A DNA stretch of 63,999 bases, the filler included, from Dimargaris cristalligena (lineage: Eukaryota): assembly GCA_003614675.1 (NCBI GenBank). It is 7 parts of 7 records of this genome, joined end to end, with 100 filler letters (N's around TTAATTAATTAA, not from the genome) between each part and the next. Parts side by side here need not be neighbours in the genome. Positions count along the whole stretch, not along the records: positions 1 to 9,198 come from ML003279.1; 6 more parts are not named here. One strand, written 5' to 3'. Below the pieces are notes generated by a model. It searched no databases. It was not told the origin of the DNA and saw only the letters and a program-made list of their open reading frames with translations. This document shows, piece after piece, positions 1 to 48,230 of this stretch; within the stretch, counting starts at the first letter, position 1, and every line of letters starts with the position of its first letter. The translations under genes and the position numbers were made by a program.

Positions 1-833
1 TCTATCATCACCTTTCCCTTTTTATCACCTATCTTTTCAAATAAAGTTCAGTTTTCAAGGATTTGAGTTTAGTTCTTTACACTAAGGTATGATAAATAGG
101 CCAACTGGACAGCTGTGAGGACTTAGAAGACTCTGTCAGTAGCCAGAAGAGTCTTTGGATCAGCACTTGAGTGATTAGTGCAAACTAAGGAGTCCAGAAG
201 GGGAATACTTATATGATATAGGGTGATCCCATAGTACTGGGGGTGACTATGGGAAGGTTAATATGGTACTATATGGCCTAATATAGTCAGATACTAAACT
301 AGCTAGATTAGGGTAGATTAGAAGGTCCATATGGATAGAAGGTTTATTCTTGATAATAACATATGAAAATAAAGATTTGAAGCAGTAGTAATGGGTCCTA
401 AACTTCAGAAATGTACAGATTAAATCAATTCTAAGGTGGTAGCAAGGAACCATTTTATAGCCAGATAATTTATAATGCCATAGAAAGGTATAAGGCTATT
501 GTAAAATATCTTAGAGTAAAGTGGGGGATTAGAAGGTCCAACAACCAGTAAGGTAACTTTACATCCATTCTGAAATTCTTGAATCCCTAGCCATTCTACT
601 CTTAGTATTCAAATCCAGTCCAGTAGCTGGGCTGCTAATGACTTCACTAATATAATATTATACCATGTAACATCATATGTGGATATCAATGATTTCCTAA
701 GAACTATGATATTCCAAACAATAGTACTGCCAAATTTTTTGTTTGAATGTTTCACTCAAAAGGGTACCAATAGCACCCATGTACCCACTGTTAAGAATCA
801 CAAACCAACTGTTTATTAGCATCATATGGAGGC
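1..833. mobile_element. CpG-free degenerate repeat / transposon relic
   Basis: No CG dinucleotide in 1-833 and no credible ORF. 81-286 recurs in inverted orientation at ~5053-5258. TE origin is inferred; family unknown. Confidence 0.45.
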
Positions 834-836
834 CGA

Positions 837-3090
837 GAAGCTAATGCTAAATGGGGGATGTGATGGTGTATAGTATATCCAGAAGAGAAATCGTACCAAT
901 GAATGGCATGTGAGGATATTCAACCAAGCGTCAGTGTTGATTAGGGTTTACCTAGTTAATTAATTCTAACCAGGATTTCAGAAGGATGACAGACCCATTT
1001 TCTACCGTATTTGTCATATAATGTCAGTGTATTACTTTCTTCGTTGATGGAGACTATTTTGGCCAAGTGTACTACCGTGGGGGATTTGCGAAGGGCAAAC
1101 ATAATTCCATCTGTATGGAAGGTAAATGTAGTTACATATTGACAAAGACTAGGTTATGAATGCTATGTAAAAAAATAATTCACCCTAATGCCACAGCGAG
1201 TAGGTAAAATAAGGGACACCAACCTTTCGACAATCCAAGCAAGGTCAGGGTGCATTAGGTAAACCTACTATGTGAGTGCCTACTTACCCCCAGATCGTAT
1301 TTCGACTCTCATGCCAGAGAAATTTAAAGCCCACATTATTTACTTAGAGTCTCTGGGGTCCAGTTAGAGGGCGGGTGAGGATGTGGGGTGGAATATAGAC
1401 AGCTGTAAGGGGCTTGGTAGAAAGTTCGGGAAAGGTAAGCGAAAACCTGATATGAGTGGTAATGTTGAATACAAAGAACTTGTTGAAAAATGACCATTGG
1501 GGCGGAGTCGAGCCTACTTTATATAATTACGTAAGCTTATAATGTAATCGACCATTCAAGTAATTTAAAATGGACTTTCTTAAACATGAATATTATTATA
1601 TGTCGGTCCAAACCATCAGTCGCATGCAGGCTTGTAATATTACTTATATATGTTTTATCAATGTAAAATTATAACAAATTTAAATAAATTGGAGTATACC
1701 TATTAGCTGTTCGGGTTATACAGAAACGGTACAATTAAAGCACTACAAGGCTTCATTTAAAATAAAATAAAAACATTATTGAACTATTTAGTCGTGGCAT
1801 GATAATGCTTGGAGTTAAACATTCCTGCTGGGGGTAAAGTTTATCGTGTTTCATAGAACACATACAACCAACACCATAATCTTGTTTGCTAAACATTGAC
1901 CCACAATTTCACACGGCTTGTTCAAGTAAGTGTAGCTACAGCCCGTAACCCATTGAAAAAAAAAGTGATAAATCGAACAGCTTGGTTTGTGGTATACCAA
2001 GACCTCTTTGTATTTTACCAAGAGCTGTCAACTATTCAATAGTAAATTTCCCCGGTTCTCACGAAGTAACATATGTATGTCATTCATCGAACTAGTTATC
2101 ATTGATTCCTTGAATATAGGCTGTACGTGGCCATGTTCTACCATCCTGTATTTTTTGGACGATCACTAATGTCAATCAGGTTTTCTGTTAACTCACATGC
2201 CCTATAATCTTCAAAGAGACTATTTTCCCATGTCAACAACCCGACTAACATGTTATATCTAATAGTGATCAATGGGGGCAATATAAAGGAAACGGCCAGA
2301 GACGGCTTATAATCCCACATATCAATATTCACCCGTTTAATATTATCTGAAGTCCAGTTCACAAATCCCCTCACGCGATTTATTAGCTTTGATTGTGAAG
2401 ATGCGAGATTTCTATAACAGGCACATTAGATGCCAAACGAGTTAAAACAGGAGGTTTGGTGCATGTATGTATGTTGCGTCGAGAGATAGAATTGAAAACA
2501 TAACCCGAGAAATCAGTGACAGTGCAGCTGGGCCAACTTCACTCCGTGTTTACAAACCTGAACAAATAGGACAGTCTACGCACCTAGAAACATTACTTTA
2601 GCGATGCCATTATTACCAGTGACAGGGATTGGTGACTCCCCTACAACTGATCATGTTAAATTTGGATTTTCTATACAGTAATGGTCGTCAAAGTACTGGT
2701 GATTATTTTATCTCGTCAATTTCGTGATTCGGGTTTCCAGCATTCCATGACCTGTGTCAAATATAACCTTTGTGGGATATTTATTGACATGCCAGTGGAC
2801 TATAACCGATACGTCAATCGGCGCCATTAATCATTACACCCTTATGGCTAATCGCCTTTCCCACCTCAAAAATTAATGGACTATTTCCATTCAATGTACC
2901 ACACTCCCTAGGACAGCGACTGTGTCCAACCGGTTAATACTAAACTAGTGGGTCTCGGCAACTTGAATGGCACACTATGACCGATTAGAATGGAAGCGTA
3001 CTAGCCTGGGAATGATTGCCGGCCGATATATATTAGTAGTAAGTGTAGGATATACTAAAGGTAGATCAATAAAACTATCTAGAGGGGACG
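837..3090. repeat. Copy 1 of a ~2.3-kb direct segmental duplication (copy 2 at ~5626-7955)
   Basis: Colinear similarity along the whole span, e.g. TTTGCTAAACATTGACCCACAATTTCACACGGCTTGTTCAA and CGAGAAATCAGTGACAGT in both copies. Ends are approximate. Confidence 0.9.
956..1336 (-). CDS. Spliced 67-aa microprotein, Tudor/SH3-barrel-like (copy 1); exons 1336-1288 and 1110-956
   Basis: ATG at 1336, GTAAGT donor, CAG acceptor, 204-nt CDS ending TAA: MWALNFSGMRVEIRSGDGIMFALRKSPTVVHLAKIVSINEESNTLTLYDKYGRKWVCHPSEILVRIN. Exon lengths and intron phase are identical in the paralogue. TATATAAA lies ~185 nt upstream. The fold call is by eye only. Confidence 0.8.
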
Positions 3091-4679
3091 GCAGTAGTTA
3101 GAGGACAGCAAGTACCTCTAGTCAGTTGGAGTTATAAAATAGAATAATCAGCAGTGGTATTTTTAACTGGATAAAATGAAAGGGCATATAATAACTAAAT
3201 ACACCAACATATTTGGTCAGAATCAGGAGAGACGAATAAACCTGTTGGGACATGTTTTTCATGACACCATTGATGGGGTGGGCACGAAGTCATGCTCCAC
3301 AAAAGACTATCCAGGCGAGTTTTTTTTTTTGCGACAGTCCTGCCAACTGATAATCCCGTCATATGAATGAAATTTGGCACTGATAATGATACCGGAAAAG
3401 GATACACGTAGGTTTTTTGTAAAGAAAAGGCCTTTAAAATATCAGATATTCAAATGGCCGCGGTATAGGACCATGCAGAGTGGACCCAGCTAATATCCCA
3501 CCCCCTCACAGAAAAACATAGCAGCTTAAATCTCATGTTTGACAATTGACCAGAAACACAAAGGGAATTGTTGGAAATCGAAGCATTCATTATAGTCAAC
3601 GTGACTTCGACAAAACTAAAACAAGTACAGCTGGATGTAGTAGACCACCAGCCAATCCATTTCCTAGGTCAACGGTAGGGCATGAACCGCAAATGGGGTT
3701 CAAAGGAGGTATGCTGGTCGAACCAAACCCCTGTAAAAGGCTGGACTTAACGGGACCTGGAAGTAACAGTACTTCATTCATTCCTATTATCGGGGCCTCT
3801 TTATTATATAAAGAAAGTATTCATACAGTGAATATTCTTCTCGGTAAAAGGTCTCTTCATTTTGGATATTCGAGGGGACGCATGTGCTGATTAAGTGGGA
3901 AATGGCAGTGTCCGCCCGTATGTAGTTAATCAAGAGCCCGAAAGCTTACTACGTATGTTGGGGGTTATAAATATCCGCCAGTCGGCCCCACTAGCTTTTA
4001 GTCCATATCTTTTTCTTTGCACAATTAGCACAATGTTGAGATTTCAAAGAAAAATATCTGATGAAATCAAGAAGTGGTTTCGAACCTTTTGAGACTATCC
4101 ACCATATGCCCCCCGTCACAAGGACAAATAGCTATTCACCGAATGGCTGCCATCACTGGTAAGTAATTATTTTTATATATGTACGTATTTTGTGTTTATA
4201 ATTCGCCTCTAAGATTATAAATATTTCTGCTTCTATAGTATAACCACAGTATATATTGTGTCCATGCCAGTCCCCGTTAGATTGAAATAATATTCTTCTA
4301 TATTAGTATGTAGTACTATTTTATTTTCAGTAAAAGATTAGGAAAATGTATAAAATTGTGTGGCCTCTATTAAATGGACCACCACCACAATGGCCAAATG
4401 GGCTTCCCTCTGCTCTAACAACACGTTTTGCGGGTGTTGCAAAACAGGTGGTAGTTGTAGTATTTTTTTGGTGTACTAACCACATTTAAACTGTAATATT
4501 GATCTAAAATAATTATTACTACTATATAGAACGGTCCCATTCTAGGGAGGGTAATGGGTGACCTTTTAGGATTGGGATAAGACACACCATAACCTGGCAT
4601 CCAATTGGTCCTCCCCGTATTCCCTCCCTGTTTGCCCAAACAATGACAGTCCCAAACTAACTATCCTCTCACAAATCCG

Positions 4680-5625
4680 CCATTGCTTGCCAGGTTAGCC
4701 ATACAATAGCCATACAGTATATATCTCTTCTTGCTGCCAATATCCTTAATGAAGTGCATTTTATTATGCCCACCATCAAGTACCAAACATACATACAGTA
4801 TAGCAAGTTATTTTAAAGCCCTCCATAAGCATGTCTTTACCTAACAATTGCATCAGTTTATTTCTACATAAATTGCCATGTAAATATGATTTCTTTAAGA
4901 GTAACCCCCTCTTTAAATTGGTGTATACCCTCATTTCACAATGGTACTATTCTTAATAATTTTCTTTACTATATTTTATATTATTATTAAAATTTTTCTT
5001 TTAGCTATCAGACTATCTAATCCCCCTTAATCTAGACACCTTTATGTCCATCCCTATTAGGCCTTATAGTACCATATTAACCTTCCCATGGTTACCCCCA
5101 GTACTATAGGATTATCCCTTATTATATAACCCTCCCCCTTCTAAACCTCACCTCTTTGCACTAATTACTCAAGTGCTAATCTGAAGACTCTTCCAGTTAC
5201 CATCAGAATCTTCTAGATACCTATGGCTATCCAGTTAACCTATTTACCTATACCTTAGTCTTTTTAATATCCTTCCTTTGGGACCTCTCTCTAGAGATAT
5301 CCCTGTATATATATAACTAGGCCCTATTAGGACTGGTTAGATTCCTTAGCTTATTCCTATCCCTAGTTTACCCCTAATAAACTCTATATATGCTCTACTC
5401 CCCTATATACTGACTAGTAAGTGTGACAGTTGCATGTCCCTTACATTTACCTATTATAACCTTTATTAGTTAGTACTATACCTGTACCTGGCACTAGCAA
5501 CCACTTAGCTGTATCTAAACCCTGCCTACTATTTAAAGCCTATCCATAGGACTCTTGATAAACTAAGAGTGGTTGGCCTGGGTATTACAAAAACCTACTA
5601 TTTATTAACACTCTATAGAGGTCTA
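4680..5625. mobile_element. CpG-free degenerate repeat / transposon relic
   Basis: No CG from 4680 to 5758. Contains an inverted, diverged copy (~5053-5258) of 81-286. Confidence 0.45.
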
Positions 5626-7955
5626 GAAGCCAATGCAAAATGGAGGAGTAGATGATATGTAATATATCCAGTAGAGAAATTATTCCAATTAATAGTCATA
5701 GGGGGGGGGTATCCAACCATTTGTCATTGTTGATTTGGGTTTTCCCAACTACTCAAAACGAACTAGAATATCAGCAGACGAAAAGATCCAATCAATATCC
5801 CTAAAGTCGGTGATCATCACTGTGTTATTTTCTTCGCAAATGGATATGATTCTGCCCACATATAGTACCGTGGGGGTTTCGCGATGGGCGAATATAATGT
5901 CACCTATATAAAAGGTAAGCATATTTACACGTTGCCAAAGACTGGGTTATGAATACCATATAAACAAAATCGCATTGGTAGTGTGACAGTGTAGGATACG
6001 ACTAGAAGACCGGAAAAAGGGATATTGAACTTCAGACAATCCGCACAAGAAAAGGGTACCCTAGATAAACCTGCTATGTAGGTGTCTACTTACACCCAAC
6101 TTTCAATTCGACCATTGGGCCATTGAAGCTCTCGGCCAGCATGCCTTATTCGGAGTTTCGGAAGACCAACTAGGGGGCGGGTGTGGATGCGAATGTGGAT
6201 GTAGAATATAGACCGCTCTAAGGGGTTTGGTAGGGAGTTCGGTAAAAACTAGCAAAAGTGTGTTGTGAGAGACAATGTTGAATACTCAGTTCTTATTTGA
6301 AATCTAGCCGTAAGGGCGGCATCTAACCTAATTTATGTAGTTCCGCAATCCAATAATCTAATTGGCCAATCAAACGATCTAGAAAGTACTTACTTAAACA
6401 CGAATATTATTATATGTCTTTCCGAACCATCAGCCGCATGCAGATTTGTAATGGTTTGTATTATTTTATCAACGGAATATTATAGTAAGTTTATATGTAT
6501 TGGTCTATACAGGAATGGAACAATTAAGGTGCTACAAAGCTTTGTTTAAAATAAAAGGTGCATTATTAAACTATTAGTTAGCGCAAGCTGATATTTGGGA
6601 TTAGCCATTCCTACTCAATCCAAAGTTTATCGTGTTACAAAGAATACATACAACCAACACCAAAATCGATTTTGCTAAACATTGACCCACAATTTCACAC
6701 GGCTTGTTCAAATAAGTGTAGCTACGGCCCATCACCCATATAAAAAAGTGATAAATCGAACGGCTTAGCTTGTAAAATACCAAGGCCTCTTTGTATTTTA
6801 CCAAGAGCAGGAAACTGTTCAATAGCACATTCCCTCGGTTCTCACAAACTACCAGGCGTATACTATTCGTAGAACCAGCTGTATTTGCTTCTTTGAACAT
6901 GGACTGCACGTGACCATGCTCTACAGTCCTGTAGTTTTGGACGATCACCAGTATCCATCAGGGTTTGTGTTAATCCACATGCCCTGTAATCTTCAAAGGA
7001 ACTATCGCCCCACGCTAATACCCCAACTAAAATGGTGTATCTGGTGACGATCAATGGAAACAATGTGGGGGAAACGACCGCAGATTGTCTAGAATCTCAT
7101 ATACCAATATTCACCTGTATACTATAATCTGGAATTTGGTACAGAAACCCCCTCACGCGGCTTGTATGCACTGCTTGTATAGATAAGAAACATAAGAGAC
7201 AAATATATTGGATGTTAAACGAATTAAAAAATGGGGATTGTTGTATGCATGTGTGTTGGGTGGGGAGGAGGAATTGAAACCCTACCTCGAGAAATCAGTG
7301 ACAGTACAGCTGGACCAACTTCACTCCGTATTTACAAACCAGAACAAATAAGGTAGTCTATGCACATAGCAACATTACTTTAGCGATGTCATTATTAGCA
7401 GTGACAGGGACTCGTGACTCCCCTACAACTGATCATGCTGAATATAGAATTCCTATACAAATATTGTTGCCAAAGTACCGATGACTATTTCATTGCGTCA
7501 TTTTTGTGATTCAGGTTTCCAGCATTTCATAATCTGTGGGAAATAAAACATTTGTGGGATATTGATTGACATGTTAGTTGGCTATAATCAATACGCCAAT
7601 GAATTCCTTCAACATTGTCAATCACTTTTCTTGATGTTAAGTTTTTTTATCGCTATCCGCGGATATCATTTATCTAGGACTGCTGACCCACCTGAGAAAA
7701 CAAAAACAAATGACAACTATTGTCCTTATATATATCGCTCCCCCTGGGACACTTAAAAGGTTCGAGAGCTAATACTAAATCAATGGGCCGGGCAGCCATG
7801 GTGGTGCACTACGAGAGTGATGCACTATGGCAAATTTGATAGCAACCATACTAACTTGGGACTGGCTGTCAATTGGGATATATTAGCAGTAAGTGGTGAC
7901 CATGAAATATAATGAAGGTTGTACATAGTTACTGGGCACTGCAAAGGGACGGGTT
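5626..7955. repeat. Copy 2 of the ~2.3-kb duplication
   Basis: Colinear with ~837-3090 at an offset of ~4.8 kb. Confidence 0.9.
5749..6142 (-). CDS. Spliced 67-aa microprotein, Tudor/SH3-barrel-like (copy 2); exons 6142-6094 and 5903-5749
   Basis: ATG at 6142, GTAAGT donor, TAG acceptor, 204-nt CDS ending TAG: MLAESFNGPMVELKVGCDIIFAHRETPTVLYVGRIISICEENNTVMITDFRDIDWIFSSADILVRFE. 27/67 residues identical to copy 1, with no indels. Confidence 0.8.
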
Positions 7956-8646
7956 TATAAATGGGTATCCAAATAAATGATGGATACAAGTTAAGATATA
8001 ATAGGGACATACTCCACGTAAACATCTGTCTTCAATATCAGGCAACACTACTGGTCTCATCTACGAATAGAAATTATGGACATTGGGGGGGGGGCTGGGT
8101 GGTAATAGGAATACTTTCAAGTCAATAAGTAACAAAATAATATAAATCATAGATTATAACAATAATCTATTCAATCAATGTCGTAAATAGGTACTTACCG
8201 GCTCCCAGAGAGGTGACATGACCGCTAATCAATTAATAGTATAGTAATATAAATTTTTAGTTATGGCCATATGTAGCTGGAATATTAGTAATTTATTTAT
8301 ACAGGGTCGCAAGGAGTAGTGCCTATATGGCATTTTAAATCTCCACCCTGGGGGCGTCAAATAAAAGAAAGCATTAGCCACCGCTACTTAGTAGCAGGGC
8401 CTTGCAGTAAAACTTTAACAGAGGGGGGTGGTAGGGCCGGTAGTGAAATAAAGGTGGACGTCCAGGGGTTGCTTTCAAAGGGATATTGCTGCAGATCACT
8501 GCATGCCTCTATTCACACTTCGCCTACCAGTGTCTATTGAATTGGAGCACTAGTAAAAAAAGGAAAGGAAACAAAGAGAGAGAAAGAGAGAACAAAAGAG
8601 AAATAACAGAGAAAAAAAAGGAGGGGGGTGAAGCTATAGCTGCAAA

Positions 8647-9120
8647 CTATATAGCCGGGGGGTTGGCTGCAGTGGTAGTAGACCAAATTGAGCCTGAGTC
8701 CTCTGGGGGGAATATGATATCAGGGCGGCATATATGGTCAATATACAGTAGTATTTTAAGGAGGGGGACCCAAAAATGGCAGGAGTAGTGGGGGGACGTT
8801 GGTAGGGAGGAGATGGTAAAATTGATGGGGTTATTATCAGTTGGGGGGGATGGGAGTGCATCAAGTAATGGGCAGGGGATGAGAGGGCATTTTGGGAGAT
8901 GGTTTTGGGATGTGTGGCCAGTACCATATGGGCAATCCTTATAGCGACCTGGTAACCACCCCATATGCCAGCAAATTAGACAGCAGCATTCAAGGCAAGT
9001 GGCAGGCAAGTAGGTAATGGGGTCTTTGCCAATAAGGCGGCAGCAACCTTTCATAAGGGCCTGGGTACTCTGTAATAAATCAACTTCAGTAAGGCGGGTG
9101 TTGTGGTAGGACCTGAGACT
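8647..9120 (-). pseudogene. Cys/Pro-rich degenerate ORF, possibly a retroelement Gag remnant
   Basis: CLICWHMGWLPGRYKDCP loosely resembles a decayed CCHC knuckle. The TGC/TGT runs could be CpG-deaminated Arg codons. Weak support. Confidence 0.25.
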
Positions 9121-9198
9121 ACTTAGTCAATTGTAGTATTCCTTTTTTCAATCACATTCTATTTTTATATCCTTTTATCAGTGAAGTCATGATTTATT

Positions 9199-9298: not shown

Positions 9299-9801
9299 AA
9301 CCTAGTCCGTTCCGGCCGCCACACTACCGGCATGCGTCCCCTTACCCCCCCCCCCGCTCTACTGGTTCCCAAAAATAAATATACCATGGTCCAAATTAAT
9401 TTTTCGGGATATGGTGGAGATGGGCAATACTGGGCACCCCAACCAAAGAATATTACTTGGCCGCGAATTATGCTGATAAGCTCAGTTGTTCTACTATGCA
9501 GAAAATTACCAGTAATATTATTATGGATTAAGGCAATGGAGCTTAGTTGTAATATTATTATCTGTTATTAACCAATACTGAGGGGAGGAGACCAACCCCC
9601 CCCCCAATCCAATTTATTTTTTATCCAGCGGACCCCCACCACACACATACACCTACGTAGACTCTATTCAGCTCCTGTAGTGTGTGATCCATTTCCATTG
9701 CTCCAATGCGTTGACCTACTCAGGCTATTGACTGTTTGTAAAACTATTCCTCTATCCATACTTAGTCTTCGTTCACCCTTCACATAGTCCACGCTCTCCA
9801 C

Positions 9802-12153
9802 ATGGCTCAGCGCATTGCTAAACTTGCGGAATTGCGAGGTCTTTGTCCTCGGGCGATCTCGCCCGCTCGTTGGACCACTGCGACCGGCTCCGCCCGCCTT
9901 CTCACTACCGCTGCCCGCAACCCCGTCCTTCGGAACTCGGCCTCCTCCAACCTAGTCCGTTCCGGCCGCCACACTACCGGCATGCGTCCCCTTACCTTCC
10001 CCCTTGCCGCCCACCGCACCATGGCCACTTCAGCCTTGGACAACGCCGACCCTCAGGATCTGGCCCGTCTCCACAAACTGCGCAACATCGGTATTTCCGC
10101 CCACATTGACTCGGGCAAAACCACCCTGACCGAGCGGGTTCTATTCTACACTGGTCGTATCAAGGAAATCCACGAGGTGCGGGGCCGCGACAATGTCGGG
10201 GCCAAGATGGACTGGATGGAATTGGAGCGGGAGAAGGGAATTACCATTCAGTCTGCGGCCACCTACGCCCACTGGAAGGACTACAACTTCAACATCATTG
10301 ATACGCCCGGGCACGTTGATTTCACCATCGAGGTGGAGCGTGCTCTGCGGGTCCTGGACGGTGCCGTTCTGGTACTGTGCTCGGTGAGTGGGGTCCAGAG
10401 TCAGACCATCACCGTGGACCGGCAAATGAAACGCTACAACGTACCCCGTATCTGCTTCATCAATAAGATGGATCGGGCCGGTGCGAACCCCTTTCGGGTT
10501 ATCTCACAACTGCGCAGCAAACTGCACCTCAACGCCGCCGCCATCCAGCTCCCCATCGGCGCGGAAAGCAACTTCGAAGGGGTCATCGACCTGGTCAAGA
10601 TGCAGGCCTACTATAACGAGGGTTTCCGAGGGGTCGACGTGGTCACCAAAGAAATTCCCGAGTCACTCCTGGCCCAGGCCAAGGAGAAGCGCCAGGAGAT
10701 GATTGCCACCCTCGCCGAAGTGGACGACGAAATCGCCGAAATCTTTTTGGAGGAAGGCGAGCCCACCACCGAGCAGCTTCAGCGAGCTATCCGGGACTGT
10801 ACCGTTAGCCGGAAGTTTGTACCGGTGATGATGGGTTCCGCCATCAAGGACAAGGGGGTCCAGCCCATGCTGGACGGCGTATGCGATTATCTGCCCAACC
10901 CGTTGGAAGTCGAGAACATCGCACTGGACCTTCAGAAGAATGAAGAACGCCAAGTCGTCCACCCCGTATCCGACCTCCCCTATATTGGCCTGGCCTTTAA
11001 GCTGGAGGAGGGTAAGTACGGTCAGCTAACCTATATTCGAGTGTACCAGGGCCGCATGGCCAAGGGCGATACCATCTACCACGTCCGTACGGGTAAAAAG
11101 CTGAAGGTGTCCCGTCTGGTCCGCATGCACTCCAACGAAATGGAAGACGTCGAAAGTGTCGGTGGTGGTGAGATTTGCGCCCTGTTTGGCGTGGACTGCG
11201 CCTCTGGGGACACCTTCACCAACGGGCCTAAAGTGTCCATGTCATCCATGTTCGTTCCCGAGCCGGTCATTTCGTTGTCCATCACCCCCAAGTCCAAGGA
11301 ATCGGCCAACTTTTCCAAGGCGCTGAGCCGATTCCAGCGGGAGGATCCCACCTTCCGGGTGCATCAGGACGCCGAGAGCAAAGAGACCATCATTTCCGGG
11401 ATGGGTGAACTCCATCTCGACATTTACGTGGAGCGTATGCGCCGCGAGTACAAGGTAGATTGTGTGACCGGTAAACCACGGGTGGCCTTCCGCGAGACCA
11501 TCACTCGTAAGGGATACTTCAACTACACCCACAAGAAGCAGTCTGGCGGTTCGGGGCAGTTCGCTCGCGTAGTGGGTTACGTCGAACCTGTAGAAGAGGC
11601 CAACGAGGACGGTTCCACCACCGAATTCGTCAACCAGGTCACGGGCGGTACCATCCCGACCAACTATATCCCGGCCTGTCAAAAGGGGTTCGAGGATGGT
11701 CTCGAGAAGGGCTGGCTCATTGGCCATCGGGTGAACGGCGTGCGGTATGTGCTGCAAGACGGTTTGGCCCACGCTGTTGATTCATCCGAAATGGCCTTCC
11801 GTCTCGCCGCGTCGTACGGTTTCCGTGAGGCGTTCATGAAGGCTGGTCCCGTCATTTTGGAACCCGTCATGAAGGTCGAAGTGAGTGCCCCGCTGGAATT
11901 CCAGGGCAACGTGCTGTCGTCCATCAACAAACGTAAGGGTATGATCGTGGATACCGAAACCCAAGACGACTACTGCAGTGTAACGGCCCATGTCTCGCTG
12001 AATAACATGTTCGGGTATTCCACCGAATTGCGGTCCAGTACTCAGGGCAAGGGCGAATTCACCATGGAATACGAACGCCACTCACCTGTCATGGCGTCCG
12101 TGCAGCAAGACCTCATAGACGAATACCAAAAGACTCGTGCTCAAAAGAAATAA
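9802..12153 (+). CDS. MEF1: Mitochondrial elongation factor G1, intronless
   Basis: [61 protein letters not shown] and [12 protein letters not shown] motifs. Arg/Ser/Thr-rich targeting presequence. Confidence 0.96.
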
Positions 12154-16602: not shown

Positions 16603-18495
16603 TTAGTAGCCCCGTGTTTCCTGGATCACCGTTTTCTTTTGTTGGGCTGTCATACGCCCGTAACCCGTTAGATGCATCGTAAAAGTACCCGTTCCCGCCG
16701 TTAACGACCGCAGAGCAGACGAATAACCGACCATGGAGCTTAAAGGGACCTGGGCGTGAATGACTTGCAAGCCAGACTGCCCACCACTGGATGGGCCACC
16801 GTAATCACCATACAGTCCACTAGAATCGCTCTCGGACTCCGTATCATCCGAAGGATTGGTATTGGTATTGTCGTCGGCACCAAGCCCACTTACGCGACCT
16901 CGCCGCACGCCACTCAAGTCACTTAACGTAGGCCCTAAATAGGATTCGGGCACTTGTACCACCACATTCATTAAAGGCTCCAACAACTCACACGTCGTTT
17001 GCTGTAACGCCTGGCGAACCGCCGAGACCGCACAGGCCCGTAGGGCCGCGGGCGAGCTGTCTTCTTCGCCGTACCACCGCAGGTGGCTCGCCCGGACGCG
17101 CATTTCTACGAGGGAGAACCCGAGCAGTTCGCCCCGGCTGAGGGCCTGCTGAATACCCGCGCGTACCGCCTCTTCGACGACTTCACGATCAGGTACCTCC
17201 TGTGTCAGGGAATCAAATAGCTCCGATACATCAATCGAGTTGGCACCCCGATCCACCGCACTGCCACTTTCAGGGTCGGAGTCGGAGTCAGCCAATTCCT
17301 CCCGCGGTTCGAGGGCCACAGTTATGCCGGCACGGCCCCGTTTACCAAGGACTTCCTTATCGTATTCCACCACCACGTCACCCGACGGCCGGCTGATCGT
17401 TTCCCGGTAGGCAATACGGATACCCCCAACGTCGGCTTTCACTTTATAATCCCGTAATAGCCGGTCTTTCACAATATCGAGGTGCAGTTCGCCCATCCCG
17501 CTGAGAATCGTTTGCCCCGATTCGGGATCGGTACTGACGTGCAAGGAAGGATCTTCGAGTAAGATATAATTAAGCGCCTGGGTGAGGGCCTTTTCTTCGG
17601 TAACGGAATGGGGCTCGACGGAACAGAAAAAGACGGGTGGTGGGGGTTCTAGTCCCCGGAGTTTGGGGAGTGCGGCTAGTTTAGGGGACCGCCCACTTCC
17701 GCCGGACACGGCTGCGCTGTCAACCAAGGTATCACCCGTACGCGTATGTTTAAGCCCCAGAATAACCCCAATCCCCCCCAGAGGAATTTCGGCGACCTCT
17801 TCAACATCGTCGGCGTACATGGTTAGCAACTTATTGGCCCGCTCCTTCTCCCGGTTATGCGTATTGATCAGTGTCATTCGGGGGGCCAGTGTGCCCGAAT
17901 AGACTCTGACGAATACCATGGGGCCTCGTCGCGAATCATAAATAACCTTGAAGGCCAGGGCACAGAGCCGGCCCGGTCCCTCGACCAATGGTACCGTCAC
18001 CACTTGATTAGGATGCTTAGAACCGCTTCCCGGCACAACGACAGTAGGGTTGGGCACATCGGCAGGGCAAGGTAAGTAGTTGATGACGGCATCCAGTAGC
18101 GGCTGCACTCCGGTATTGCGGAACGCCGAACCGCAGAGGACGGGAACGCCCTGATTAGCGATGGTGACCCGCCGGATAGCCGCGTCAATGTCCGCCGCCG
18201 ATACGGCCAGTGGATCCTCGGATTCGAGGAAAATCTCCAGCAGAGTTTCGTCCAAGTCACACAATGATTCAACCAGATCGGCGCGGGCCTGATGGACCGC
18301 GTTTACCAAGTCCCGCGTCTCGGAGGATGCTTCGGTGACGGTGGCAGACAGCGGAGTCTGATTCAGCTTCACCCCTTCGGTGGTCGTGTCGAATTCCAGC
18401 AGTTCCATGCGGATGACATCCGCAATGCCAGCGAGTAATGAACCGTTGGATAGGGGAATTGCGGTCAGTCCCCGGGTATTCACTTGGTCGAGGGG
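16603..18495 (-). CDS. MEF2: Mitochondrial EF-G2 / ribosome-releasing factor 2, 5'-truncated by the contig end
   Basis: [73 protein letters not shown] and LRSLTAGTGTFTM. This is the divergent EF-G2 type and it lacks the KKQSGG motif. Confidence 0.88.
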   Translation of the reverse strand, partial: PLDQVNTRGLTAIPLSNGSLLAGIADVIRMELLEFDTTTEGVKLNQTPLSATVTEASSETRDLVNAVHQARADLVESLCDLDETLLEIFLESEDPLAVSAADIDAAIRRVTIANQGVPVLCGSAFRNTGVQPLLDAVINYLPCPADVPNPTVVVPGSGSKHPNQVVTVPLVEGPGRLCALAFKVIYDSRRGPMVFVRVYSGTLAPRMTLINTHNREKERANKLLTMYADDVEEVAEIPLGGIGVILGLKHTRTGDTLVDSAAVSGGSGRSPKLAALPKLRGLEPPPPVFFCSVEPHSVTEEKALTQALNYILLEDPSLHVSTDPESGQTILSGMGELHLDIVKDRLLRDYKVKADVGGIRIAYRETISRPSGDVVVEYDKEVLGKRGRAGITVALEPREELADSDSDPESGSAVDRGANSIDVSELFDSLTQEVPDREVVEEAVRAGIQQALSRGELLGFSLVEMRVRASHLRWYGEEDSSPAALRACAVSAVRQALQQTTCELLEPLMNVVVQVPESYLGPTLSDLSGVRRGRVSGLGADDNTNTNPSDDTESESDSSGLYGDYGGPSSGGQSGLQVIHAQVPLSSMVGYSSALRSLTAGTGTFTMHLTGYGRMTAQQKKTVIQETRGY

Positions 18496-18595
18496 NNNNN
18501 NNNNNNNNNNNNNNNNNNNNNNNNNNNNNNNNNNNNNNNTTAATTAATTAANNNNNNNNNNNNNNNNNNNNNNNNNNNNNNNNNNNNNNNNNNNN

Positions 18596-40762: not shown

Positions 40763-43751
40763 CTAGTAAGCATTAATGAGTTTTTGTAGCTGAATATTCT
40801 CGGCTTCCAGGGTTTCCGCCAATTGGTGGGCCTTTTCTAATTTGCCCATTAGCCAACCGATCCGCCCCCCGAGCTGATCGGGAACGGTCGCATTGGGATC
40901 GAGCGTAGTGTGGTGAGTTGGGATCACCCAAGATACCCACCAGGTGGGTTTTAAGACGCGGGGAACATACCCCGACCAGGTCGACGTTAAGGGAGATAGC
41001 CGGCTACCCATGCCTCCTCCGGAGCTGGTTAGGAAGGCGGGGCTGGGAATCCCTTTGAAACCAGCGATACCCTCGAGACGTTGTAATTCGGTTTCGTATT
41101 TGCCAATGGCCACGTTATGCTGGTCAATGAGGGCTTTGTTGGTACGGATTTGCATAGCCGCGGCGTATACGCCATCCTCCTGGATGAATTTGAAGGCCGT
41201 ACTAAGTACTGGACGGGCCGGGCGGATGACAGCGGGTCGACCTGTTCGTGGGGGATAGTAAGATTACACATAAACGAGGGTGGTATTTCCCATTAATAAT
41301 AATTAGTATCCCCTGGCGAGGCCAAATACTGAATAATAGGGTGGGGTTTGCCCACGTGATGATTGGATCATTTTTAGCACATGCGCTCCCGGAATATGTG
41401 CTTGACTTACCGTTGTTTTGCACAATACTAATGAGTCCGGCGTATTCCATAGCCAAGAGCGCCTGTTCGTCCCCGATAAACAACGGGGATGCCAAGAGGG
41501 TATAATAGTTAAGGGACGGTTTCTGAGCCAGTGATTTCATAATGGTCCAAAACTGAATGGTGCTCCACTTTCGTTTCGCGTCCGCCATATTGGTATCCTC
41601 GGAGTCCTGGTCGGATAAAGCAAATTTACGCACTTCGGCCGCGGTTTTCGTCACAATGTCATCCACCGCTTCCGTGATGGGTTGGCCCCCTTTCACTTTG
41701 CGGACCAGGAGTTCAAGGTCAGTGAGTCGGCCGCCCAGACACACCACGGCGGTCTCCAGTTGTCGGACCAGGGTTTGGTAATCCGCGTGGTCCCGGTCCG
41801 AAGCGGTGGGCGGGGGAACGTCATCCAAATCTAGCTGGTACTTGAGTACCTCGAGGGCACTTTCGGGGGACGGGTCCGCAAGGACAAGGTTGTTGAGGGA
41901 CTTGTGGGGCAATACCCGACTGAGGGTTTTGGACGCGGCCACATTGGAGGACACGAACAAAACGTGGGCCGCTTGGTTTTCGGTGAGCAGGGCCGCCCAT
42001 TTGGCCAGGATTTCCCAGAGCACTTTCTGGTGCTCGTCCGTGTCGCGGCACATGTACCCGGTGATCACAATCAACGGCGTATCGGTAGAAATGTACGAGT
42101 CTTCCGACTCACTTAGGTCGGTGGCTTGGGCCCCATTGGTCGCCCCCTCCGCATTGTCGGGGGTAGCGCCACCGGGGGTCGCTGTGGGACTGTTTCCTTT
42201 ACTTTGCAACGCAACGGACGGCCCATTGGGGTGACCCGGGCCAAACACCCGTTTCCACAGGGTAGTTAGTCCGGAATCGGGCTGCGCCCGGGCTTCCGCC
42301 CTTTCCTCGGCCCGTTCCTCCGCCACATTTTCCCGAACATTGTGGATAGCTACCGCAACACACTCGAGCACTTTTTCCAATTGGGCCTCGGCACTGGCGG
42401 ATAGGCCCGCTTTCTGGCCGGTCGTGGTGGCAATGGCCATATCCATTAAATTAGTCACACTCTGCATGAAACTGAAGACGGGACGGTAGCCGACCTGTTT
42501 GGCCAAGAGAACCAGCATTTCCCGCTCGTTACGGGCCCGGGCCACTTCGTTGGCGTTGATGGTCAGTCGGTAGGGTCGGTCCCGGGTGACTTGGCGCACA
42601 ATCTCGGACTTCCCCGTGCCGTGGGGGCCCTGGACTAAGGTGAACGTTTCGGGGACTTCGTGGAGCCATTTCTCCAAACGCTGGCGATCCTGCTGCCGTT
42701 CGGACCAAGTGGCCAGTCGCCGGCCGTCCAGGCCATCGGAGGGGGCGTGAAAGATGCGGTGGATGGTCTGGCGACTCAGCCACCGCAGCATTGGGTAACT
42801 ATCCCACTGGAACCGTTGTAATAGGTTACATTCGATGAAGAACACCCGCACCGGGTCGAAGACGGCGTAGACAATGGCAATGAACGCACCGGCCAAGAGG
42901 GGAAGGACAAGGCGGGGGTGGGAGGTTAGCCAGTCCCAAATGTATTTTTTACGCATGATGCGTTCGTAGGAGAGGATAAGATCGGTGTCACCCAAGGGAA
43001 TGCCATGGAGACAGTTGCGGGCGCTCGCGGCGGACCGAATGCGGGTGTACTGGATGATGGCGTAGCGGGGGGAGTCCTTGACCGCAGGAGGGTGGATGGT
43101 AATGTCGAATATGCGGCCAAAGGGACGGAAGGTGCGGTAAAGGGCTTCGATGGTCGGATCCGGCCCCTGAAATTCGACCCGCAGGCGGGGTGAAGGGTAC
43201 CAGTTGATGAGATCCTCGGTAAACGGGTGGCCCTGAACCCGGAAGGCCCGGGTTTTTTGGATATTGAACCAATTCCGGGCGACCCGGTTGGCCACATGGC
43301 GCTCAATATCGCGATCCAGCTTATCGTACACCTGGCTCACTTCGGCCTGGTCTAATGGCGAAAGGGAACTACCGTCACCACTCTCACTATTCTGGTAGGC
43401 CAGCTTGACCAAGGCGCCGCCTTCCTTGACCCGGGGGATAACGTCTTTAACCACTAGGCCCTGTGGCAACTTCTGGGGTACTAGGCAGTGGTTAATATGC
43501 TTTTCCAGCCCCTGGTGGGACCGTATAAAGAGATAGCCTCGGAAATCGAACTGGTTGAACTTGATGGGGTAAATGTTGTCGAAATAGACGCACAGGTCCG
43601 GGGCGGTTGGGTCAGTGGTGGGCGGAGTTGAGTCCCAGGGCACTGGTTTGGTTTCGGTCAGCCAACGTTTGGGAATTACCAGTGGGCGGAGTCTGCGGCC
43701 CTGGAGTGGAGGCCGCCGTATGGACGAGCCCCACAAACGGGCGATAGTCAT
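40763..43751 (-). CDS. YME2: Mitochondrial escape protein 2 (Yme2/Rna12: RRM, TM, P-loop domain); exons 43751-41411 and 41241-40763
   Basis: VYFDNIYP, PRVKEGGALVK, LYRTFRPFGRIFDI, AASARNCLHG, WLTSHPRLVLP, VQGPHGTGKS and LGGRLTDLE. Spliced GRPAVIRPARPV across the intron at 41410-41242. Confidence 0.92.
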
Positions 43752-44684
43752 GGGGGTAAGTGCGGGGGAGGACCAAACCGAAAAGTATACAAAACTAGAG
43801 AAGGGCTGAGGCGTAGCAAAAGATGAAATGTGAGGTTGAAATGGCAAATGGATCGAAGGAAAGGCTTTTGGGTATTGTAGGAAGTTCTTAAGGGCCGTCC
43901 TTTGGCGGAACCCACACTGCTCGAGATAAGTATAATATGGGCATGTGCCACTACTATATCGGACAAACCATACGCCATACACTACTGACTGGGTCCAGGA
44001 CTGGGGTTAAACTAGGGCTTTTTCTGGTGTAACTTCCCAGGGATTTCGTATCTGTTGCCGGATACTTGGGAACAACCACCAATTGGACCCAAAACTACTG
44101 TAGCCAGCCAATTTGCTTGGATTGCCAATGCTGATATTTATAATACTAGGGGAAAACTAAGAAGCCCCTGAATTAGACATATTTCCTAGGGCCCCCTAAG
44201 ATCCGGCTGTTTGAACGGCCATGCTTAATTGACCATACAGTTTGTCTTCGAATCAAACGAGGCCGCCCAATACGGCCCTACTCAAGCAATCCCCTTGTAT
44301 TGCCGGAATAGTCGTTTAACGGGTTTTGGGGAAAGGACTGGCCTACTCAAAGATTGCTCATCGATTGATCAGGGGAAAGGAGAAGAAGGGGGGATTTCAA
44401 GGAGTGATGCCCTCTCCCTTGCGGTGGGAATACATCCGAAACGAAGCGCTACCGACATCAGTCAATCATACAATATATGGATACACTCTGATTACTTGAT
44501 AGCCTCCACCACCACACTGATAGCGGCCTTGATTAGCCAGCTATTTAGACCCCGCTTTAGCCGTCCCTCCTCCTCCTCGTCCCCATTACTTTGTTTCCCT
44601 GGAACCTACTACTATCTGCGTGTGTTCCTCTTACAACCTTCAAAATACTCCTCTCAGACTCTCCATATTCCACTACGCTTGACC

Positions 44685-46409: not shown

Positions 46410-48230
46410 GATCGGGAGCGCCAGGCGTTCGAACAACGCATTGCCGACCTGGAGGACCGGGTGCAGCGGGAGGCCCGGGCCCTGCGGGATGCGATGGCCC
46501 ACCGTGATACCCTGCAACGCGAGATTGTGGGCATGTGCGGCGACTACGAGTGTCAGATTGAGGGCCTGAAGGGTGAGTTGGAGCGGACACAGAACAACGC
46601 CCGTGCTTCGGAGGACCAACTGCGGGGCCAGTTGGCGGAGGCTGAATCAACTTCCACTGATCTGCGGGGTGAGAACGATGGCCTCCGTCACAGCCTGACC
46701 CAGGCCGAAGACCGTTTGGGATCCCTCGCTCTGGCCCTGGAAACCCAGGCTAGCGAATCGAAAGACATGCTGGATCGGTTATCCCGGCAGCATGAGCAGG
46801 AACAAGGCGAGCGGCAACGTCTGGAATCTGAGCTAAAAGACCGGGACCAGCTAGTATTGCGGTTAGAGACTCGTCTGAAGGACCTGACCCTAGCGCTGAC
46901 CCAGGCCCAGGACAGCCAGCGTCTGACCAGTGATACCAACACAACTGAGCAGCGGGCCCTGAATCAGAAAATTATCGATCTCCAGGCCGAACTGGTCAAC
47001 GTTGGCAGAGAGAAGGTCGAGCTGGTGGTGCAACACCAACAGGAAATCACCAGCCTGCACGCTGAGCTACAGGCGGCCCAAGCGCGGGAGCTCAATCAGG
47101 CCCACGAGTTGGACCTGCTCCGGAACTCGGTGGGTGACCTCCAGCAGAAGCTGCAACGCGCCAATCGACTGATGAAGCAGCGCGAGTCCCGGTTCCTGAT
47201 TGAGTTGAAGAGCGTTGACGCCCAAATTACCGAGCTTCACGCAAGTAAGCGGCGCCTGATGGAACAGTTCGAGCAAGACGCCCGGCCTACGGAGGACCTG
47301 TTGGCCGCGGCGATGGACGAAGACGACGACATCAGGGATGCCGAGGACGAGTCGACCCGGGAAGCCCAGGCGATCGCCCCCACCCTCTTGACATCGAAAG
47401 TGGCGGTCGAAACGACCCGTACCCTAGAACTACTGGATCGCCAGCGGCGGGCGCTCACCGCCACCTACCACTTGAATGAGCAGAAATGGCTGACTGAAAA
47501 TGAAAACCTCGTCGATGAAATCGAGCTCCTCCGTAGCCAAATCCGCTCGCTCGAGCACGACCGGGACACCCTCGGCCGGCAATGGGCCCGGGACATCCAC
47601 GCCAATGTATCCCATTTGGTCGAACACCACACCCGGTCCAGTCGGGCCATCGACGAGGTCATCCACCAATGCCAACTGGAACTGCGTCTGGCCGAGACCG
47701 CCCTACACAAGCTCCAGGTGCCCCTGCAACAGGCCCGCGAGGAAATCCAGGCCCTGCACACCCAACGCGAGGAACTGCAACTGCAATGGGATAAACACCG
47801 CCAGCAACTGGAGTCGGAGCGGGAGGACCTGGAGGCCCAATTACGCCTTCACGGGGACGAAATCCGGGGCCTGGAGGCCCAGCTGAAGGAAGACGAGGCG
47901 GGCCGGGATGAGGCTATCGACAGGGGTACTGCCAATAGCGACAGTGAAGACGATGGCAACCAATCGCCACTCTCTCCCCGCTCGACACTCACACGCATCG
48001 CCGATCTGAAACAACTTAACGAAGAACTGCAGGACAACTTAACCCAGTCCTCCTCCGAGCTCGCCGACCGCTCCGCCGACCACCAGCGTCTGATGGACGA
48101 TATGGACGCACAGATCCGGGAGCTAGAGCAGAGTGTTCAGACTATCGACGAGACCTACGAATTCCGCCACCGCGACTTCCAGGCCAAAGAGGCCCAGCTG
48201 CAAAGGGCACTGGCCGATCAACCGGTGTAG
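46410..48230 (+). CDS. Long coiled-coil protein, 5'-truncated
   Basis: Frame open from the contig start. L/E/Q/R-rich heptads over about 600 aa. No family recognised. Confidence 0.75.
   Translation, partial: DRERQAFEQRIADLEDRVQREARALRDAMAHRDTLQREIVGMCGDYECQIEGLKGELERTQNNARASEDQLRGQLAEAESTSTDLRGENDGLRHSLTQAEDRLGSLALALETQASESKDMLDRLSRQHEQEQGERQRLESELKDRDQLVLRLETRLKDLTLALTQAQDSQRLTSDTNTTEQRALNQKIIDLQAELVNVGREKVELVVQHQQEITSLHAELQAAQARELNQAHELDLLRNSVGDLQQKLQRANRLMKQRESRFLIELKSVDAQITELHASKRRLMEQFEQDARPTEDLLAAAMDEDDDIRDAEDESTREAQAIAPTLLTSKVAVETTRTLELLDRQRRALTATYHLNEQKWLTENENLVDEIELLRSQIRSLEHDRDTLGRQWARDIHANVSHLVEHHTRSSRAIDEVIHQCQLELRLAETALHKLQVPLQQAREEIQALHTQREELQLQWDKHRQQLESEREDLEAQLRLHGDEIRGLEAQLKEDEAGRDEAIDRGTANSDSEDDGNQSPLSPRSTLTRIADLKQLNEELQDNLTQSSSELADRSADHQRLMDDMDAQIRELEQSVQTIDETYEFRHRDFQAKEAQLQRALADQPV

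Follow-up and report, generated by a model that had tools for sequence, protein, structure and literature searches.

The locus described here lies in the genome of Dimargaris cristalligena, a mycoparasite of the Kickxellomycotina as far as the available part of the species literature describes it (PMC9866270). Our window, meaning the whole stretch of DNA that was analysed, is 63,999 nucleotides (nt) long and joins seven parts from seven records of assembly GCA_003614675.1, with 100 filler letters between each part and the next. Within its first part, positions 1 to 9,198 from record ML003279.1, are two small minus-strand genes, each split by one intron and each predicted to encode a protein of 67 residues; most likely they are a pair of real, intact paralogues that annotation has passed over. 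Copy 1 starts with an ATG at 1336-1334 in a 49-nt first exon (1288..1336; 16 codons plus 1 nt), continues past a 177-nt phase 1 intron (1111..1287) bounded by GTAAGT...ACAG and ends in a 155-nt second exon (956..1110) with the stop codon TAA at 958-956. Copy 2 has the same architecture: an ATG at 6142-6140 in a 49-nt first exon (6094..6142), a phase 1 intron of 190 nt (5904..6093) bounded by GTAAGT...ATAG, with CTTAC 12 nt before the acceptor, and a second exon of 155 nt (5749..5903) closing with TAG at 5751-5749. A hidden Markov model (HMM) of the family picks out 1336-1286 and 1111-959 in copy 1 and 6142-6089 in copy 2.

Both models, 1336-956 and 6142-5749, had been proposed in an earlier note on this DNA, and their coordinates, their 49- and 155-nt exons and their phase 1 GTAAGT..YAG introns were all reproduced. 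The note's other counts came out the same way: 67 codons in each copy, a stop at the same aligned position, no indel in either exon, only 27 of 67 residues identical and 57 differences in the 155 nt of exon 2, to which we can add 22 in the 49 nt of exon 1. The swap from basic to acidic charge that it remarked upon is there too (isoelectric point 9.43 and net charge +2.7 in one protein, 4.46 and -6.4 in the other), and neither gene is annotated, both being absent from every public protein set we searched. Around the coding sequence, an in-frame TAA stands two codons 5' of the ATG in both copies and position -3 is a purine (A or G). Both copies also conserve a TATA-like element and an AATAAA. 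The first, a putative promoter element, is at 1393..1397 (minus strand) in copy 1, 61 nt upstream of the ATG and within a conserved block, and at 6206..6210 (minus) in copy 2, 68 nt upstream. The second, a candidate poly(A) signal, is at 812..817 (minus), 138 nt past the stop of copy 1, and at 5601..5606 (minus), 142 nt past that of copy 2. The introns are of a kind seen elsewhere in the window: that of the RNA12 gene, which is anchored by protein alignment, begins GTAAGT and is 169 nt long, so that the microprotein introns fit it in donor and length, and they also resemble the intron deduced from a break in the open reading frame (ORF) of an Hsp70-type gene (GTAAGC, 147 nt).

Each gene sits in a longer repeat. 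Unit 1 (799..2830, minus) takes in the gene with about 1.5 kb of DNA on its upstream side and 160 nt on its downstream side; unit 2 (5588..7612, minus) follows 4.8 kb away in direct orientation, both being delimited by BLAST and pairwise alignment. BLAST aligns 799-2818 with 5588-7600 at 72.8% identity over 2053 columns, and the repeat ends sharply, some 15 nt past the conserved AATAAA. The gene body is its most diverged part, with 139 of 381 positions differing compared with 388 of 1619 in the flanks (Fisher p 1e-6), and Jukes-Cantor distances run from 0.29 upstream and 0.32 downstream through 0.45 in the intron to 0.51 in exon 2 and 0.69 in exon 1. The upstream DNA contains a run of 41 identical nt, at 1885-1925 and 6671-6711, about 600 nt upstream of each ATG (3 of 5000 shuffles reach such a run), and a 675-nt block free of indels (2157-2831 against 6939-7612), both of them better conserved than the microprotein genes themselves. 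We looked for a second coding gene in this 1.5 kb and found three-base periodicity of the differences in no window and no Pfam match. A non-coding RNA was considered and rejected as the explanation of the repeat: Rfam gave 0 matches at E <= 1, no tRNA was found, and the conserved block folds no better than its shuffles (z between +0.8 and +1.4 for either strand of each copy). Repeat-induced point mutation (RIP) was set aside as well, the (CpA+TpG)/(ApC+GpT) ratio being 1.10-1.15 and C/T differences amounting to 20-24% in all four contexts, with no preference among them.

The earlier note called the region repeat-rich, which overstates the case, for beyond this 2-kb pair the entire window holds just one 55-nt match and an inverted pair of 240 bp. 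The members of the 240-bp pair, 81-322 and 5016-5259, are 76% identical and lie 330-480 nt downstream of each gene unit, in opposite orientation relative to it. Since their divergence is that of the flanks of the 2-kb repeat, the two pairs suggest a single old duplication followed by inversion or rearrangement. No further copy of the family turned up in the window by tblastn or with the family HMM. Positions 1-9190 are AT-rich and gene-poor, with a GC content of 0.37-0.43 compared with 0.5-0.57 in the genic parts. None of 103 ORFs of at least 40 residues there (3 further ORFs were left out) has a match at Pfam's curated thresholds, which also means no reverse transcriptase, integrase, transposase, Rep protein or helicase core among them. 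The one Pfam listing at E <= 0.01 in these ORFs is a sub-threshold match of copy 1, to which we return below. A 159-aa open frame at 8650-9126 (minus) in the same stretch has no Pfam match at E <= 0.01.

A third member of the family exists. When a profile of exon 2 was run against 1.84 billion representative proteins, it gave a single match at E <= 0.001, a protein of 73 residues from D. cristalligena (E 2e-6; P0001 in our searches) deposited as KAJ1978328.1, 'hypothetical protein H4R33_006000'. By tblastn the same protein matches exon 2 of copy 1 (E 1.1e-5) and of copy 2 (E 2.6e-11). Although its N-terminal 16 residues lay outside the query, they align in register with the exon 1 peptides: 7 of 15 residues are identical to copy 2, a score reached by 2 of 100000 shuffles, and 72 of 100000 reach the score with copy 1. 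All three members align without a gap over 67 columns, 18 of them invariant; of 67 residues the two copies share 27, copy 1 and KAJ1978328.1 share 23 (34%), and copy 2 and KAJ1978328.1 share 30 (45%). A second strain of D. cristalligena differs by about 1% in RNA12, and because KAJ1978328.1 is only 45% and 34% identical to the window copies, it makes better sense as a third paralogue than as an allele. Beyond it the searches fell silent. A word-index protein search with exon 2 of copy 2 returned nothing and one with the three-member alignment returned KAJ1978328.1 alone; viral contigs gave 180 pattern matches and no relative. With no NCBIfam match, no Pfam family at threshold and that one relative among the 1.84 billion representatives, the description of the family as uncharacterised is borne out. 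The literature on Dimargaris cristalligena (PMC9866270, PMC6784888, PMC13533422), in those parts of the main texts that were available and with supplements outside the scope, does not mention a microprotein family of this kind.

The third member also helps to settle the gene model. In both copies the frame of exon 2 continues open for 14 codons into the intron (intron 3' ends 1111-1153 and 5904-5922), and this allows two other structures. One, a single-exon ORF of 57 residues from an ATG at 5922, is present in copy 2 alone, and KAJ1978328.1 counts against it. The other, an 81-codon model using a donor at 1283 and an acceptor at 1149, is conserved in both copies and was rejected because KAJ1978328.1 lacks the additional 14 residues.

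Are such short, diverged frames likely to have stayed open by chance? In neutral simulations at 39% divergence the frame remained open in 13-24% of runs, and remained open with its ATG and its stop in 1.3-2.1%. The probability of retaining GT..AG under neutrality is 0.14. Non-coding parts of the repeat show 11 gap events in 1796 aligned nt, and there are none in the 204 coding nt, which by our estimate from the non-coding gap rate adds a factor of about 0.15-0.3. Because these odds combine, neutral preservation of the whole structure has a probability near 1e-3, about 1 in 1000. We also enumerated every one- or two-exon model, on both strands, whose ATG, GT, AG and stop are shared by the two copies. 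There are 160 in the repeat; the two running from the ATG at 1336 to the stop at 956 are alone in having 50 codons or more, the runner-up falling short at 49. Exon 2 itself lies within the longest of the six co-open frames, at 65 codons against 52. The replacements between the copies are conservative, p being about 0.01: their BLOSUM62 score is 129, compared with 82-84 +/- 19 in stop-free simulations that place the same number of differences at random, of which 42-59 in 5000 reach 129.

What might these proteins be? The earlier note had suggested small beta-barrels of the Tudor-knot, chromo-barrel, KOW or SH3 kind. The first pointer to one of these is the sub-threshold match just mentioned, between exon 2 of copy 1 and the Pfam family TraI_2B (17.8 bits with a cut-off of 26.7, E 0.0031). 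A pattern scan with the family motif led to a metagenome locus for a PIF1-like helicase of bacterial type, the match falling within its 2B/SH3 region. To make a template that would not lean on this selected sequence, 80 related helicases were fetched and aligned and the 2B region was cut out, giving an alignment of 81 sequences. Its identity is confirmed by Pfam: 41 of 42 members match SH3_13, and 26 of 42 match Pif1_2B_dom. These helicases (L001, 4131-6692, and L002-L081) form a clade of PIF1-like enzymes, mostly from Bacteroidota, of about 800-880 residues with C-terminal HRDC and HTH_40 domains, and the clade has an invariant 2B signature, Q-V-M-F..K-N-D / N-G-K-x-G. Compared by hhalign with this template, the three full-length microproteins match at a probability of 92.7% (E 4.3e-7, score 37.1), residues 10-46 of the family pairing with residues 290-332 of the helicase; a greedier setting extends the alignment across 5-65.

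The match stood up to a range of controls. None of 200 column-shuffled families reached 37.1 (mean 10.4, maximum 21.6), the reversed family scored 11.2 and an unrelated alignment 12.5, and without the three helicases containing the selected 9-mer the score was still 36.9. Given the full-length helicase alignment, hhalign found the 2B region as its only match (75.7%), and when the helicase was cut into 20 sliding windows, the 2 containing residues 290-332 scored 33.7 and 36.7, the other 18 between 7.6 and 11.9. We therefore see the beta-barrel idea as surviving in its SH3 form and regard an SH3-like barrel as probable. Its Tudor, chromo-barrel and KOW forms found no such support: the best Pfam hit of this kind is KOW7_SPT5 for KAJ1978328.1 (E 0.13, 12.5 bits where 27.1 is needed), and neither Tudor nor chromo nor KOW chains came up in PDB searches at E <= 10. 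Searches of the PDB by profile and by single sequence gave only matches at E 0.25-1.6, two of them barrels of RNase P protein component 1, at the level of noise. On profile evidence, then, the nearest known relative is most likely a helicase SH3 domain rather than a Tudor or KOW domain. True descent from a helicase 2B domain we hold to be less likely than not. A helicase that decayed in place is unlikely, because no relic of one stands beside the genes: a full-length helicase HMM found no relic motif in the window, its best independent E value being 0.88. The absence of a signal peptide, also claimed earlier, is consistent with the data as judged by hydropathy alone (maximum Kyte-Doolittle means of 0.97-1.43 for 12-residue windows in the first 30 residues); the members have 1-2 cysteines each.

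Set beside the 2B domain of PIF1/RecD/TraI-type superfamily 1B helicases (SH3_13 PF18335, Pif1_2B_dom PF21530, TraI_2B PF18340), the microproteins match in profile over the strands that carry motifs B and C, where the two have in common an LxLKxG start, a strand of hydrophobic residues and a G-K-I-G-x-I-type hairpin; in size they are about equal, at 55-60 residues. Pif1 has a 2B domain with an SH3-like fold, in which strands beta11-12 correspond to motifs B and C (PMC4824106); the long loop-3 hairpin described there has no counterpart in the microproteins. They differ, too, in being free-standing, with an ATG and a stop of their own, rather than inserted in a RecA-like 2A domain, and no helicase core lies nearby. 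The helicase invariants Q-V-M-F..K-N-D and N-G-K are kept only partly, K-N in KAJ1978328.1 alone. With Tudor, chromo-barrel and KOW domains the likeness is in short strands of alternating hydrophobic residues, glycine turns and a domain of about 55 residues. There may be a likeness to Tudor strand patterns in particular. Aromatic residues are invariant at two columns of the three-member alignment, and a tryptophan is present in two of the three; with only two such positions invariant, a conserved cage for methyl-lysine or methyl-arginine is not evident. In other respects the genes resemble orphan fungal microproteins, which are likewise short, restricted to a species, missed by annotation, close to intergenic DNA in base composition and weakly constrained. 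PIF1 and Helitron helicase domains are among the transposable-element-derived domains most often co-opted in fungi, as stated in the accessible part of PMC10799480, and what differs here is that the accessory barrel alone would have been kept, without the helicase motor, as a spliced stand-alone gene. Our literature search found no published case of a 2B domain as a microprotein.

We come now to selection; the earlier note suggested that the family is diversifying. All of our DNA-level selection tests rest on a single pair, copy 1 against copy 2. By the Nei-Gojobori method dN is 0.525 and dS 0.629, giving an omega of 0.83 (bootstrap 0.42-1.59), from 59.3 changes at 157 non-synonymous sites and 18.7 at 44 synonymous sites; the 'mostly non-synonymous change' that had been remarked upon is what these site counts predict. 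Differences per codon position are 28/23/27, and non-synonymous sites differ neither from synonymous sites (p 0.60) nor from the intron (p 0.49). As p-distances the values are 0.378 for non-synonymous sites, 0.43 for synonymous sites, 0.34 for the intron and 0.24 for the flanking non-coding repeat, and all three classes exceed the flanks (Fisher p 3e-4, 0.0067 and 0.0046, respectively). Because intron and synonymous sites stand above the flanks to the same degree as non-synonymous ones, the surplus of change in the gene body is not peculiar to the protein; compared with its flanks, the whole transcribed unit is fast or old. Conversion in the flanks or constraint on them could be the cause, as could exchange with other paralogues or mutation linked to transcription. 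Nor do the changes cluster beyond chance, as had been supposed: 4628 of 20000 shuffles reach the observed 15-residue maximum, and 4997 of 20000 do so for nucleotides. Codons 45-59 do have a dN of 1.17 against a dS of 0.58, with a non-synonymous rate above that of the intron (p 0.004), in a patch picked post hoc. Diversifying selection is unsupported by these numbers, neither demonstrated nor excluded, and weak constraint is the simplest reading.

The explanation we favour, and to which we would give a probability of roughly 0.55, is that the two copies are real, unannotated paralogues belonging to a tiny family of one species, with proteins of 67-73 residues that form an SH3-like barrel and are weakly constrained. 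The family has at least three members, the two in the window and KAJ1978328.1. The gene is a compact unit of TATA-like element, ATG, 49-nt exon, phase 1 intron, 155-nt exon and AATAAA, which was duplicated along with 1.5 kb of upstream DNA. Its product, if translated, is most likely a single five-strand SH3-like beta-barrel without a signal peptide, to which exon 1 may contribute the first strand (the LKVG-type motif) and exon 2 the remaining ones, with the hairpin G-[KR]-I-[IV]-S-I and the end strand DILVR. Apart from the 2B/SH3 domain of PIF1-type superfamily 1B helicases, which carries Pif1 motifs B and C, it has no detectable relative, and we therefore infer a free-standing binding module that might bind a nucleic acid or protein partner through its variable loops. 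It could have arisen by descent from a helicase accessory domain, possibly by way of a Helitron-type helicase, or by convergence. Under weak constraint it would have retained its frame, gene signals and residue chemistry at an omega near 1. A bolder version, in which a PIF1/Helitron-type 2B barrel escaped to become a spliced microprotein in a haustorial mycoparasite, was duplicated and had its loops and charge reshaped, and acts in trans as a decoy or modulator of PIF1-type helicases or their partners (fungal, selfish-element or host), is a long shot.

A good deal weighs against the favoured explanation, and it is best gathered in one place. The third base of codons has a GC content (GC3) of 0.40 in copy 1 and 0.51 in copy 2, near the 0.39 of introns and intergenic DNA and below the 0.61-0.72 of 8 housekeeping ORFs of the window. 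Purifying selection has left no signature at the nucleotide level, as omega, the counts by codon position and the similarity of the site classes all attest, and agreement in hydrophobic class does not go beyond simulation, 669-743 of 5000 runs reaching the observed value. Of the three members KAJ1978328.1 alone appears in the public protein sets searched, and that entry may be an ab initio model; Funannotate annotation of such assemblies is described in PMC9866270, and the KAJ1978328.1 record may come from that work. The exon 2 profile found no relative in other Dimargaritales proteomes or beyond among the 1.84 billion representatives. As for the fold, no Pfam 2B model is matched at threshold, and copy 2 and KAJ1978328.1 have no 2B match at E <= 10. 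HMMER gives the three members only 6.8, 4.7 and -0.3 bits against the helicases, and taken singly they score 12.6 (copy 1), 19.3 and 28.1 in hhalign. With exon 1 missing from two rows the probability drops to 41.8% and the score to 23.5; exon 1 therefore strengthens a match that spans the splice junction, in keeping with the gene model. The template family, finally, was first reached by a pattern scan seeded with the query family's own motif.

Several of these points would be expected if one or both window copies were non-functional, for example decaying duplicates of a functional gene of the KAJ1978328.1 type. Omega is near 1 and differences are spread flatly across codon positions; copy 1 has the GC3 of background, with GC by codon position flat at 0.42/0.39/0.40, and is the most derived member, with 23 and 27 of its 67 residues in common with the other two and the lowest of the three hhalign scores, 12.6 against 19.3 and 28.1; and neither copy is annotated. 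Decay must be squared, however, with a joint neutral survival of frame, ATG, splice sites and stop without an indel that we put at about 1e-3, with replacements that are conservative (p about 0.01) and with the contrast between 11 gaps in 1796 non-coding nt and none in 204 coding nt, which together make it unlikely in our judgement. Diversifying selection on a recognition surface, as in effectors, recognition proteins or chromatin-reader mimics, would account for the non-synonymous p-distance of 0.378 above flanks of 0.24 (Fisher p 3e-4), for the patch at codons 45-59 and for the shift in net charge from +2.7 to -6.4, in an organism that is a mycoparasite (PMC9866270, in the part available). 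It runs up against the whole-gene omega of 0.83 (0.42-1.59), the equal rise of intron and synonymous sites, the non-significant clustering, a DNA comparison limited to one pair and the absence of a signal peptide by hydropathy, and we judge it improbable.

There is also the possibility that the 2-kb unit is, or formerly was, a mobile element, non-autonomous and Helitron-like or else resembling a long terminal repeat (LTR), with the ORF as its passenger, derived as a relic or by capture from part of a PIF1-type (Helitron) helicase. The sharp ends of the repeat about 15 nt past the AATAAA, the direct orientation of two units 4.8 kb apart, much as in a pair of LTRs, the similarity of the ORF to the 2B domain of PIF1-type helicases and to nothing else, and the frequent co-option of PIF1 and Helitron helicase domains in fungi (PMC10799480, as far as its accessible part goes) all lend it some appeal. 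Yet 0 of 103 ORFs in 1-9190 reach a curated Pfam threshold, the full-length helicase HMM finds no relic in the window (best E 0.88), and no terminal inverted repeats, TG..CA or TC..CTRR ends were seen by eye in the aligned boundaries. The unit occurs just twice in 64 kb and carries no RIP-type mutation pattern, and we consider this origin very unlikely. Two real genes of a small, weakly constrained family remain our preference.

If these genes are expressed, then two public annotations have overlooked intact, spliced microprotein genes in the AT-rich, seemingly 'empty' DNA of an early-diverging fungus. If the explanation is true in full, they would offer a case of orphan-gene origin in which a barrel of about 60 residues, otherwise only an inserted domain of helicases, has become a stand-alone protein. 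If they are not expressed, the locus would still be instructive as to how long a frame stays open in a diverged duplicate.

The rest of the window is more conventional, its large ORFs including EF-G, Hsp70-type, PPR, RNA12, CobW, VPS11, EMC1, catalase and L24e, along with a 606-aa open frame at 46410-48230 (plus) that has no Pfam match at E <= 0.001. D. cristalligena has one homologue of the giant-virus major capsid protein, and is the only non-zoosporic fungus with such a match in the part of the source available (PMC13533422); as far as we can tell, it is unrelated to the microprotein locus. Two genes for EF-G-type GTPases, at 9766-12153 (plus) and 16603-18543 (minus), lie 4.5 kb apart with the Hsp70-type gene between them, and are probably two mitochondrial EF-G paralogues. 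The RNA12/Yme2-type gene at 41202-44006 (minus) is identical to the D. cristalligena protein RKP34254.1 at 718 of 719 aligned residues and to KAJ1984219.1, the second public D. cristalligena model, at 775 of 782; its next relatives are 58% and 51% identical. RKP34254.1 is without 63 residues that are present, in frame, both in the window ORF and in KAJ1984219.1, and the gap takes in the stretch with the G-x-x-G-x-G-K-S P-loop motif. The missing segments look like falsely predicted in-frame introns.

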